Part shown: positions 11,891-13,556 of the stretch, piece after piece
Position numbering within the stretch: the stretch's first letter is position 1
Layout of the letters: each line of letters begins with the position of its first letter
IMG/VR virus record: IMGVR_UViG_3300021963_000054
Coordinates: 1-64,000 of that record
DNA: 64,000 nucleotides
Direction: 5' to 3' (one strand)
From: a virus
The notes under the pieces: generated by a model
What the model was told of the DNA's origin: nothing
Databases searched by the model: none
The model's input: only the letters and a program-made list of their open reading frames with translations
Program-made: the position numbers and the translations under genes

Positions 11891-12568
11891 ATGTTTACCT
11901 ATTGCCCACCTAAGAAACTTGAAGACTTAAAATCAGAAACACTAGAGAACGGAAGATTTTATGTGACGCCAGATGGTAAGAGATTGCCATCTGTAACAAC
12001 AGTCTTGGGCGCAATGGGTAAGAAAGCCATCTATGAATGGCGCCAGCGTGTTGGTGCAGAGGAAGCAAATCGTATATCACGAATTGCATCTGGGCGTGGT
12101 ACACGTATGCATACGCTATGCGAAAAGTATTTGAATAATCAAGACATAGGTAAACCGATGCCCGATGCTTTGGAATTGTTTAGAAAAGTAAAGCCGTATC
12201 TAAATAAAATCAACAACATTCATTATCAAGAATGTGCATTGTGGTCAACAAAACTTGGCATGGCTGGGCGTGTAGATTGTATCGCAGAATATGATGGTGT
12301 TCTTTCTGTCATTGATTTTAAGACTTCGGCTAGAGTGAAAACAAGAGAAGATATTCCTGCATATTTTGCTCAATGTACCGCTTATGCATTGATGTATGAA
12401 GAATTGATTGGTGTAAGAATTGACCAAATAGTTGTTATCATGGCAGTTCAAGAAGATAACCCAATCATCTTTGTTGAGCCGATGAGAAAACATATAAATA
12501 CTTTACTAGAGTATATTAGTTTTTACCGAAAACAAAATGAAAAGAACAATTATTACCCGACAAACTAG
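11891..12568 (+). CDS. PD-(D/E)XK exonuclease
   Basis: LPSVTTVL, RGTRMH, AGRVDC, VIDFKTS, QCTAY; typical neighbour of phoH. Confidence 0.88.
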   Translation: MFTYCPPKKLEDLKSETLENGRFYVTPDGKRLPSVTTVLGAMGKKAIYEWRQRVGAEEANRISRIASGRGTRMHTLCEKYLNNQDIGKPMPDALELFRKVKPYLNKINNIHYQECALWSTKLGMAGRVDCIAEYDGVLSVIDFKTSARVKTREDIPAYFAQCTAYALMYEELIGVRIDQIVVIMAVQEDNPIIFVEPMRKHINTLLEYISFYRKQNEKNNYYPTN

Positions 12569-12585
12569 TTTTGTTGTGTTATAAT
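12493..12585 (+). promoter_or_regulatory. Candidate late (TATAAATA 12493-12500) and sigma70 extended -10 (TGT-TATAAT 12580-12585) promoters upstream of the tmRNA
   Basis: Exact T4 late consensus, plus an extended -10 about 6 nt before the presumed acceptor-piece start. Confidence 0.55.
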
Positions 12586-12591
12586 TAGTGT

Positions 12592-12995
12592 TATTGCTGT
12601 ATGAAGCAAAGAGAAAAGTGTCCTGGACGGGGGTGCGAATCCCCCCACCTCCACCATAAGGATTTAAGTGGATAATAAACTTAAAGAATTGCAGGAAAAC
12701 TTAGCTAAAGATTTAGTTAAGTGTGAAGCCCGTGAGGGAATAACATTAACTGAAGAAAATTTAGAAAAGATTTCCGATGCTTATTCAAAAGTTTATGATA
12801 TCATTACTGAGATAAAATCTTTATGATGGGGGTGACCTAGATTCGACAGGGCAACAAGTACATGCGTGGACAGCACGGTAGGCGATGACCGTAAATCAAG
12901 CAAAAAACGTAAATGCAAATGACGAAAGTTTTGCTTTAGCGGCCTAAACGCCGCTTAGGGTTTCGGTAGGTTTCCTCGTAACAGAATAACCTACC
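12592..12995 (+). ncRNA. ssrA: Circularly permuted (two-piece) tmRNA
   Basis: Acceptor piece: T-arm GGGGG-TGCGAAT-CCCCC 12629-12645, CACCTCC-A-CCA 12646-12656. Coding piece: begins GGGGGTG 12828-12834 (7/7 pairing with G3.U70), then GATTCGAC, with CAGGGC pairing to GTCCTG. Tag ANDESFALAA* 12915-12947 with hairpin AGCGGC/GCCGCT; terminal hairpin GGTAGGTT/AACCTACC 12965-12995. Outer ends are approximate. Confidence 0.93.
12668..12826 (+). CDS. 52-aa helical protein nested in the tmRNA intervening segment
   Basis: TAAGGA RBS 12657-12662, GTG start; MDNKLKELQENLAKDLVKCEAREGITLTEENLEKISDAYSKVYDIITEIKSL*. Fills 159 of the 171 intervening nt. Confidence 0.6.
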   Translation: MDNKLKELQENLAKDLVKCEAREGITLTEENLEKISDAYSKVYDIITEIKSL

Positions 12996-13019
12996 AATAT
13001 TTTAACAAGGAGTTTTATT

Positions 13020-13556
13020 TTGAAGAAAATCGCAATCGCAAGTTTAATTGCTATCGCCGCTACAGTACAAGCTGGTGGTTTTGTTTCGTATGGTGTTGAC
13101 CAAGTTACTGACCGAGTAAGCAACCAACAAAGTATCGCACAGTATGTCCGTGCTGGTACTACGTTAGGTGGTTTCAATCTTGGCTTGCAAAATCGCAATG
13201 CTCGTACTAATGACAATCTCTCCATGTACAATAGTTTGGAACTTACCGCTGGTAAAACAGTTTTTGGTATTAACCCATTCGTTGGCGTTGGTTTTGATAA
13301 TGGTGGCGCTGGTGCAAAGCCATATGAATATGGTCTAGTCGGCGCAAACGCTGGAGTTAAAGTTGGTCCTGGTTATGCCATGGCTGGTGCTAAGACCCGT
13401 GTAAATTGGGATAGCGCAAATCCAAAACAATCTGTAGTATTTGCTAGTTACGACATGCCAGTCATCAGCAAAGTATCTGTTGGTGTTGGTGTTAGCCAAA
13501 GCTATCAAGATATTCAAGACCGTGCGGTCGGACTTACAGTCTCAGTAGGATTCTAA
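13020..13556 (+). CDS. Outer-membrane beta-barrel (porin-like) protein
   Basis: AAGGAG RBS, TTG start, signal peptide ending VQA, alternating amphipathic strands, terminal ...VSVGF (BAM-type C-terminal Phe). Confidence 0.75.
   Translation: MKKIAIASLIAIAATVQAGGFVSYGVDQVTDRVSNQQSIAQYVRAGTTLGGFNLGLQNRNARTNDNLSMYNSLELTAGKTVFGINPFVGVGFDNGGAGAKPYEYGLVGANAGVKVGPGYAMAGAKTRVNWDSANPKQSVVFASYDMPVISKVSVGVGVSQSYQDIQDRAVGLTVSVGF

Follow-up and report, generated by a model that had tools for sequence, protein, structure and literature searches.

We describe a circularly permuted, two-piece transfer-messenger RNA (tmRNA) gene of betaproteobacterial type in a T4-like phage, together with a conserved 52-codon protein gene that fills the spacer between the two pieces of the RNA. 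The locus occupies approximately positions 12592-13004 on the + strand of the stretch analysed here, which corresponds to positions 1-64,000 of the IMG/VR virus record IMGVR_UViG_3300021963_000054 and is hereafter called the window (64,000 nucleotides, nt). An initial annotation of the window had proposed the permuted tmRNA and treated its spacer as empty; the tmRNA is supported by covariance models, gene prediction and thermodynamic folding, whereas the spacer instead carries the protein gene, at 12668-12826. We consider it probable that the locus is a working beta-type two-piece tmRNA gene whose spacer constitutes a nested gene, translated before the RNA matures, and acts as an exchangeable slot.

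The identity of the gene as a permuted two-piece tmRNA is far above chance. The initial annotation had put forward ARAGORN and the permuted Rfam models as checks, and both recognize the locus. Two Rfam models exceed their gathering cut-offs: RF04321 (tmRNA_permuted; 138.8 bits, cut-off 47, E 3.7e-27, 12595-12947) and RF01850 (beta_tmRNA; 115.2 bits, cut-off 84, E 2.4e-34, 12556-13004). The latter is the match retained by Rfam among overlapping matches of the same clan, placing the gene in the beta (Burkholderiales-type) subgroup as opposed to the alpha and cyano subgroups. ARAGORN calls a permuted tmRNA ('tmRNA*') at 12564-13038 and reads the same tag that had been proposed earlier, ANDESFALAA*. 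Folded blind by a thermodynamic model, the segment 12592-13004 again shows the T-arm, acceptor stem and inter-piece helices, at an energy of -126.8 kcal/mol, versus -92.6 +/- 5.3 kcal/mol for shuffled sequences (z -6.4; 0 of 100 shuffles equally stable). The whole virus record comprises 104,951 bp, is approximately 61% complete and has a T4-like PHROG content that includes a gp32-type single-stranded DNA-binding protein, a helicase loader, a DNA end protector, baseplate hub and wedge proteins, a tail tube protein and PhoH. The window had been described as lacking smpB, and the statement extends to the whole of this partial record, in which a search for SmpB (PF01668) found none. Rfam called no riboswitch in the window, ARAGORN found no further tRNA or tmRNA in its 64 kb, and a distant-mode blastn comparison of 12400-13200 against the INPHARED phage collection returned no match. 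The tmRNA is also the sole RNA gene detected in the 105-kb record, no tRNA being called by ARAGORN in the remaining 41 kb either (L388-L390).

The permuted gene begins with its acceptor piece (12592-12656), which contains the 5' strands of the inter-piece helices, the T-arm, the 3' acceptor strand and an ACCA end; its putative 5' end at 12592 is set by the position of the predicted promoter, and the Rfam alignment starts at 12595. In both the sequence and the Rfam alignment, the T-arm (12629-12645) consists of a 5-bp stem, GGGGG/CCCCC, and a 7-nt loop, UGCGAAU. It is followed at 12646-12656 by the 3' acceptor strand CACCUCC (12646-12652), the discriminator A and CCA. The intervening segment (IVS; 12657-12827, 171 nt) is expected to be excised in maturation and folds into a long rod-like hairpin. 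The coding piece (12828-13004, the 3' end being approximate) was delimited with Rfam and ARAGORN and holds the 5' acceptor strand GGGGGUG (12828-12834), a D-loop analogue, inter-piece helices, a hairpin, the tag reading frame and a 3' hairpin. The two acceptor strands, 12828-12834 and 12646-12652, form seven pairs that include the alanine identity element G3 (12830):U70 (12650). The tag frame (12915-12947), called by ARAGORN with GCA as the resume codon, reads GCA AAT GAC GAA AGT TTT GCT TTA GCG GCC TAA, and no CCA end follows the coding piece, in keeping with the permuted order. The T-arm, the 3' acceptor strand, the ACCA end at 12656, the GGGGGUG at 12828 and the tag frame all lie where the initial annotation had placed them; its permuted order, with CCA ending at 12656 and G1 at 12828, its perfect 7-bp acceptor stem with G3:U70 and its non-canonical T-loop TGCGAAT likewise hold in the sequence, in the ARAGORN call and, for the loop, in the Rfam alignment.

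The spacer contains an open reading frame (ORF) of 52 codons, MDNKLKELQENLAKDLVKCEAREGITLTEENLEKISDAYSKVYDIITEIKSL, which runs on the + strand from a GTG start at 12668 to a TGA stop at 12824-12826. The start is preceded by a Shine-Dalgarno (SD) sequence, AAGGA (12658-12662), and a 5-nt gap, and the stop ends one base ahead of the predicted RNase P site at G12828. The frame occupies 93% of the IVS, versus a mean of 37% when the interior is shuffled, and none of 300 shuffles reaches 93%. Compared with its homologue in L224 it shows six synonymous and no non-synonymous changes, and compared with L229 it shows 15 synonymous and five non-synonymous ones, for a ratio of non-synonymous to synonymous substitution rates (dN/dS) of 0.05; other pairs of homologues yield ratios of 0.08-0.21. 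Homologues with 51-100% amino-acid identity are present in 33 viral loci, and a large protein collection holds 36 clusters of the family, most of them exactly 52 residues long and without a name. The family alignment has 18 invariant columns, and the motifs L.ELQE.LAKDLV and YSKVYD are invariant. In IVS-borne copies with only 58-60% protein identity (L242, L234), the SD, the 5-nt spacing and the start codon are all retained. Given the dN/dS values of 0.05-0.21, the free-standing homologues described below and the 36 protein clusters, we count the frame as a protein-coding gene, and as such it is a real, conserved gene under purifying selection with a predicted protein product. AlphaFold models this protein as a two-helix hairpin (predicted local distance difference test, pLDDT, 76).

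The genomic positions of these homologues tie the family to tmRNA genes. By manual reading of the loci, tmRNA sequence lies within about 540 nt of the 52-codon gene in 31 of the 33. Spacer-borne copies (L229, L242, L234-L239) are found with both acceptor types described below and also in a lineage whose T-arm differs. Free-standing copies either lie immediately upstream of a tmRNA gene (L232/L233, L240, L248) or are separated by about 400-500 nt from a tmRNA gene downstream (L241, L243-L247, L249). In the tandem arrangement of L230:640-1260 and L231, the ORF stands between decayed remnants of the acceptor stem and coding piece, and an intact permuted tmRNA whose spacer measures 118 nt comes directly after; this tandem resembles an intermediate between a state with the gene in the spacer and a state with the gene upstream of the tmRNA. 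Spacer-borne copies end in ..KSL and most free-standing copies in ..DKPKE. L230/L231 and L233 suggest that free copies of the ..KSL type may derive from spacer copies; the ..DKPKE-type free copies could be ancestral. A further arrangement was observed in L227:560-1080, where there is no acceptor piece and the exonuclease gene located upstream continues directly into the ORF at its codon 4 (..AYFAQC|T..KLKELQ), with an intact coding piece behind; this is either a true deletion variant or an assembly chimera.

The use of the spacer as a site for genes extends well beyond this family. Loci carrying both tmRNA pieces numbered 194 (88 + 105 + the window) and provided 126 distinct spacers of 25-491 nt. 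End-to-end pairing of at least seven consecutive pairs is found in 117 of the 126 (median 10), versus 22.5% when the ends are drawn from different spacers. Because the 126 spacers have 79 different 10-nt starts and the pairing is nonetheless kept, the closing stem co-varies. A terminal UGAU is present in 110 of the 126. Seventy spacers measure 80 nt or more, and in 37 of them a sense ORF fills at least 80% of the length, compared to 6.0 +/- 2.2 in shuffled sets (maximum 13 in 100 rounds); the remaining 33 are not filled by an ORF, and the other 56 of the 126 fall below 80 nt. Under a stricter rule, an SD-led ORF is found in 35 of the 126 spacers, and in 20 of these 35 the stop codon is the UGA of the conserved UGAU. 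The encoded products are mutually unrelated, encompassing membrane peptides of 23-41 residues and proteins of 50-151 residues, and these unrelated frames share the SD-start layout. Two cases match Pfam families above their cut-offs: a 111-residue GNAT-type acetyltransferase in L330:542-877 (- strand; PF13508, 28.5 bits with cut-off 27; PF00583, 26.6 bits with cut-off 20.7), and 86-residue CxxCxxCC proteins in L255:629-889 (- strand) and L266:940-1200 (+ strand), matching PF03692 with 29.4 and 26.6 bits (cut-off 23).

Other spacer contents were noted alongside these. Spacers of 98-100 nt (L037, L253, L334, L259, L274, L277) hold conserved, SD-led hydrophobic frames beginning MF[DE][EN]WHWVY.. 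and M.IEWYH.., with no in-frame stop in the spacer, so that the frame continues into the mature coding piece and would become a non-stop message once RNase P cuts. Spacers of 215-256 nt (L240:939-1153, L282, L308) contain two consecutive membrane-peptide ORFs (36 and 25-35 residues) preceded by one SD-bearing closing stem. Non-coding spacers with T-arm-like hairpins (GAGGUUCAAGUCCUU; CGGGUUUGAGUCCCG) occur in a 78-nt class (L013/L042/L043), whose closing stem resembles a 7-bp acceptor stem, and in a 71-nt class (L018/L059/L068). Nested tRNAs were considered for such spacers (L013/L042/L043, L018) and ruled out, as ARAGORN calls no tRNA in any spacer of the 34 loci tested. The spacers that do not carry genes appear to be structured non-coding RNA. 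On this comparative evidence, the spacer in this phage lineage is an exchangeable slot for diverse small genes or structured RNAs.

The spacer of the window is strongly folded as well as coding. Its minimum free energy is -42.1 kcal/mol, versus -24.0 +/- 3.5 kcal/mol for shuffles (z -5.2; 0 of 200 equally stable), and in a fold of the whole precursor the rod stacks on the acceptor stem. The closing stem joins UAAGGAUUU (12657-12665), which contains the SD, to AAAUCUUUA (12815-12823), which doubles as the last codons of the ORF (..K S L), through nine consecutive pairs. Spacer-borne copies of the ORF have fold z values of -6.6, -2.2, -3.7 and -3.9, and only two of eight free or remnant copies reach -2. 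We infer from these models that the spacer would be under a double constraint, having to encode a protein and to fold so that acceptor strands 171 nt apart can meet.

Conservation in the IMG/VR contigs points to selection on the surrounding tmRNA as well. The 32 nt that close the acceptor piece (12625-12656) recur without change in 96 of them, and at least 120 further contigs carry a sister acceptor type, CAGGUCC/GGGCCUG, in which two pairs are compensated on both strands and G3:U70 is retained. Among representatives, ARAGORN calls a permuted tmRNA with an AND..F/Y..AA-style tag in 30 of 34 related loci, and judging from these contigs the beta-type tmRNA is common among uncultured viruses. Comparison of close relatives reveals an uneven distribution of identity along the gene. 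Relative to L218, identity is 96-100% in the tmRNA and spacer and 89-92% in the flanks; relative to L219 and L226, it is 100% in the acceptor piece, approximately 99% in the spacer, 82.8% in the first 87 nt of the coding piece, 69.7% in the tag region and 88-89% in the flanks. As read from these identity profiles, breakpoints of sequence exchange fall inside the tmRNA gene. A third phage tmRNA lineage was also seen (L234:640-680, L235, L230:900-940), with the T-arm GCGGG-GGCAGUG-CCCGC, whose loop is unlike canonical T-loops, and the D-loop analogue ACAGGAUCGAU; L234 is still called a permuted tmRNA by ARAGORN, with the tag ANDEKFRIAA.

The elbow of the RNA departs from the usual pattern in two places. 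In tRNA, G18 contacts pseudouridine (Psi) 55 and G19 pairs with C56, contacts that we take to be carried over to the tmRNA elbow. A canonical T-loop (U54-U(Psi)55-C56) together with a GG D-loop analogue is typical of the class without defining it, and the gene has neither: G12635 in the loop UGCGAAU occupies tRNA position 55, and the D-loop analogue is AG (A12839, G12840; 12839-12840) in place of the usual GG, the equivalents of G18 and G19. The AG analogue accompanies the UGCGAAU loop in 193 of 193 phage loci, and GG is found in all seven relatives whose T-loop has U55 (L099, L152, L233, L376-L379). The phage UGCGAAU/AG loci probably share one ancestor and hence represent one event. An independent case is provided by L385:1500-1850 (G403), an unrelated one-piece bacterial tmRNA from a metagenome-assembled genome (MAG) of the Elusimicrobiaceae (RF00023, 133.7 bits), which combines the UGCGAAU loop with AG as well; a tmRNA with the loop UCCGAUU retains GG. 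A scan of bacterial contigs with a permissive pattern (two N in the T-loop) listed at least 120 matches, mostly one-piece tmRNAs of many phyla, and is not usable for frequencies; among the matches listed, one has the G55 loop and two are permuted tmRNAs. Since both changes always occur together, in 193 of 193 phage loci and independently in L385, we read G55 with A18 as a probable swap of a tertiary pair, from G18:Psi55 to A18:G55, rather than as damage.

Bacterial relatives were sought in 401 genomes sampled from the order to which a Duganella MAG belongs, and 29 of the 401 matched (the tally includes the unpublished G381, which is the basis for nothing else). The best four genomes (G397, G247, G339, G067) have sizes of 1.9-3.1 Mb, tmRNA loci of 40-50% G+C and permuted tmRNAs with the tags ANDESYALAA, ANDENFAMAA and ANDENFALAA, and permuted relatives are also present in Oxalobacteraceae and Duganella MAGs (L099, L152). 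Identity of the coding piece to bacterial relatives reaches 87% over 77 nt. Bacterial spacers measure 30-44 nt (30-33 nt in the best four) and follow the same design, with a closing stem and then UGAU before G1. A betaproteobacterial (Burkholderiales) host or donor can fairly be inferred from these relatives. The initial annotation had suggested a betaproteobacterial host from the tag; the suggestion is reasonable in view of the permuted beta-type relatives in 29 of the 401 genomes.

Assembled contigs from four lake or freshwater metatranscriptome runs offer a view of the locus at the RNA level, with relatives of at least 88% identity summed, DNA carry-over possible and contig ends uninformative. 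The coding piece is covered in all four runs and the acceptor piece in three of the four. In two runs, a single contig carries the ORF and bridges the junction between spacer and coding piece (X1 record 5, 12661-12877; X2 record 13, 12627-12862). An ORF-bearing precursor form is hence present in the RNA libraries, a statement of presence only. The bins upstream of the predicted start (12454-12588) are uncovered in all four runs and the spacer is uncovered in X3 and X4, uncovered contig regions carrying no evidential weight; the same applies to contig ends, several contigs matching exactly 12592-12656. Apparent joints at 12659>12821 and 12662>12838 were considered as splicing and rejected, as they represent instead relatives bearing other spacers.

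Signals flanking the gene were also predicted. A candidate sigma-70-type promoter on the + strand (12557-12585) combines the -35 element CCGACA (12557-12562), a 17-nt spacer and a TG-extended -10 element TATAAT (12580-12585), with 10 of 12 consensus matches plus the TG ahead of the -10; the relatives L234 and L235 have TTGACA-17-TATAAT at the equivalent place. Downstream of the tag frame, a hairpin of GGUAGGUU and AACCUACC followed by AAUAUUUUA (12966-13004, + strand), a helix present in both the Rfam beta model and the blind fold, is the probable end of the transcript. The gene directly downstream (13020-13556 of the window) encodes a 178-residue, Gly-rich protein with an N-terminal signal-like segment and a beta-strand-like composition, for which there was no Pfam or PHROG match.

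The tmRNA itself is a member of a published class, the two-piece tmRNAs of phages. The OM43 myophage Melnitz carries one (Buchholz et al. 2022, PMC9004378), and in the same paper ARAGORN is reported to class 53 phage tmRNAs, out of 133 unique ones, as two-piece, 50 of these 53 coming from marine or aquatic samples; a 2025 tmRNA database paper counts 79 phage sequences (PMC11915505). The initial annotation had called phage tmRNAs uncommon. That two-piece phage tmRNAs exist is correct, yet by the figures given in PMC9004378 they are not rare in aquatic phages. Like Melnitz and the pelagimyophages, as far as they are described in the part of that paper available to us, the present phage is a T4-like aquatic myophage with a complete permuted ssrA, an early-type promoter (a predicted one here) and no phage smpB reported. 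The Melnitz tmRNA, in contrast, is reported to be of alphaproteobacterial type and to have a glutamine riboswitch (PMC9004378), whereas the present gene matches the beta model best, has no Rfam riboswitch and has a protein gene in its spacer; the available part of the Melnitz paper makes no mention of spacer ORFs. With the bacterial beta-type RF01850 genes (G397, G247, G339, G067, L099, L152) it shares gene order, helices, tag style and spacer design. It differs from them in its 171-nt, gene-bearing spacer and in its G55 and A18, the bacterial genes having 30-44-nt spacers without an ORF, canonical T-loops (UUCGANU or UUCAAUU), and GG in the D-loop analogue.

Two published systems bear on the presence of foreign sequence in such a spacer. 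Inserts described for tmRNA IVSs indicate, as here, that the spacer tolerates foreign material: one IVS holds an intact tRNA-Ala gene, called a 'unique feature', and another a repetitive element in a 1152-bp gene (PMC11915505). These inserts are RNA or repeat elements, and the portion of that paper at hand mentions no protein-coding spacer ORF, whereas the insert here is protein-coding. The IVS of the Coxiella burnetii 23S rRNA, which bears an S23p ORF, is similarly a stem-closed, ORF-bearing segment excised from a stable-RNA precursor (PMC4990558), but it interrupts another host RNA and is described, in the part of the paper available, as a selfish element, whereas the present gene has purifying selection and free-standing homologues. 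No literature on ORFs in tmRNA spacers was found among titles and abstract openings, and the supplements of PMC9004378 and PMC11915505 might list cases. On the sequence evidence presented here, the new elements are a protein gene under selection within an excised spacer, the general use of such spacers as an exchangeable slot, and the apparently compensated elbow pair.

The sequence of events that we favour can be formulated as follows. A single transcript would start just downstream of the TATAAT at 12580-12585. A ribosome would read the spacer ORF while the spacer is being transcribed, and the RNA would then fold and mature as a stable-RNA precursor. The rod fold of the spacer would bring the two acceptor strands together, with the closing stem burying the SD; host RNase P would cut 5' of G12828, and host 3'-end enzymes would trim to the encoded CCA at 12656. 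The predicted products are an acceptor piece of approximately 65 nt base-paired with a coding piece of approximately 175 nt. Host alanyl-tRNA synthetase (AlaRS) would charge this two-piece RNA via G3:U70, and the charged RNA would act with host SmpB to rescue stalled ribosomes and add ANDESFALAA. With its SD locked in the closing stem, the RNA would translate poorly once folded, and translation is for that reason placed in the interval during which the spacer is being made. Co-transcriptional translation followed by folding is the most economical and most likely model under these predictions.

Several observations weigh against this reading. The SD is entirely paired in the predicted rod, and the free-standing copy L247 is strongly folded too (z -5.5), so that the structural contrast between spacer-borne and free copies is not clean. 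For the 52-residue protein, PHROG (at 1e-5 and 0.01), Pfam, the ESM Atlas and Foldseek give no match to a family or fold, the best ESM Atlas scores, against clusters without a name, being 0.86, below the level counted as more than a lead, and Foldseek against BFVD giving 0 matches at E <= 0.001. The departure from the canonical T-loop at position 55 may mean reduced or altered function. Promoter-like sites are not above the shuffled expectation (2.3 +/- 1.8 such sites in the shuffled region), the predicted promoter being a pattern match only, and a simple terminator scan gave no call on the 3' hairpin. The contigs of the RNA libraries may reflect DNA carry-over, sum relatives and show no ends, and smpB could sit in the unrecovered part of the record.

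An alternative that grants the tmRNA its function holds that the 52-codon frame is an untranslated, captured relic, its sequence kept for the rod that brings the acceptor strands together. The location of the SD and the last codons within the closing stem is compatible with this idea, as is the stronger folding of IVS-borne copies in comparison with most free ones, and the ORF of the Coxiella 23S rRNA IVS was synthesizable in vitro with an engineered promoter and ribosome-binding site, according to the part of PMC4990558 available. Selection for pairing alone, however, would not spare amino acids, and substitutions among IVS copies are mostly synonymous (6:0 and 15:5, the latter with dN/dS 0.05); moreover, L242 and L234, at 58-60% protein identity, retain the SD, the start codon and the 5 nt between them, and unrelated ORFs in other spacers show the same layout. 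We give this explanation little credence. A different elaboration retains translation and makes synthesis of the nested protein gated by, and reporting on, the maturation and activity of the surrounding tmRNA. Under such gating the SD would become inaccessible as soon as the polymerase has made the 3' half of the closing stem, which leaves time for about one round of co-transcriptional translation before the rod licenses the RNase P cut; the released spacer would be a minimal message with its UGA one base from the 3' end, sister spacers of the 98- and 100-nt classes would have no in-frame stop ahead of the cut, and ribosomes on such released spacers would become substrates of the tmRNA excised from the same transcript. 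We regard this as a tentative and on balance unlikely proposal. If true, the tmRNA halves would make the spacer a portable, self-processing and self-limiting expression slot, exchanged by recombination between co-infecting T4-like phages.

The remaining alternatives concern the tmRNA rather than the ORF. The phage RNA could be a modified competitor, marked by its G55/A18 elbow, that occupies host SmpB or AlaRS or retargets tagging. The non-canonical T-loop is fixed in more than 200 viral contigs, and the literature provides possible parallels, within the parts of the papers available: a phage tmRNA-like RNA without a coding sequence that inhibits host tmRNA is mentioned in PMC11915505, and selective tagging of host proteins is discussed as a possible role in PMC9004378. 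Yet the tag frame is unbroken and conserved, its tags end canonically in ..LAA, and the acceptor stem shows compensatory changes with G3:U70 retained; furthermore, G55 and A18 go together in two lineages independently, and one of the two is an ordinary one-piece tmRNA of a bacterium. This pattern looks like compensation of a tertiary contact and not loss of function, and a competitor seems improbable to us. It could also be argued that the locus is mainly a cassette for the expression and processing of small genes, the tmRNA halves providing a portable promoter, signals for RNase P and for 3'-end processing, and recombination arms, and tmRNA function being dispensable. The diversity of unrelated ORFs in the slot, the recombination breakpoints inside the gene and the survival of the ORF between decayed tmRNA halves in L230/L231 would fit such a cassette, but an intact second tmRNA directly follows in L230/L231, tag frames are conserved, and the tmRNA is conserved regardless of whether its spacer is shorter than 80 nt (56 of 126) or longer without being filled by an ORF (33 of 70), so that we consider this very improbable.

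The spacers of permuted tmRNAs are usually regarded as discarded RNA, and annotation pipelines that mask tmRNA genes probably miss the genes inside them. Yet real small genes repeatedly occupy this spacer in aquatic T4-like phages of an abundant group, and one stable-RNA precursor may double as a messenger. The locus thereby provides a testable system for the competition of translation and RNA maturation on one molecule, for the tolerance of the tmRNA T-loop/D-loop contact, where G18:Psi55 would be replaced by A18:G55, and for the spread of small 'moron' genes between phages via conserved RNA genes that may serve as landing pads.

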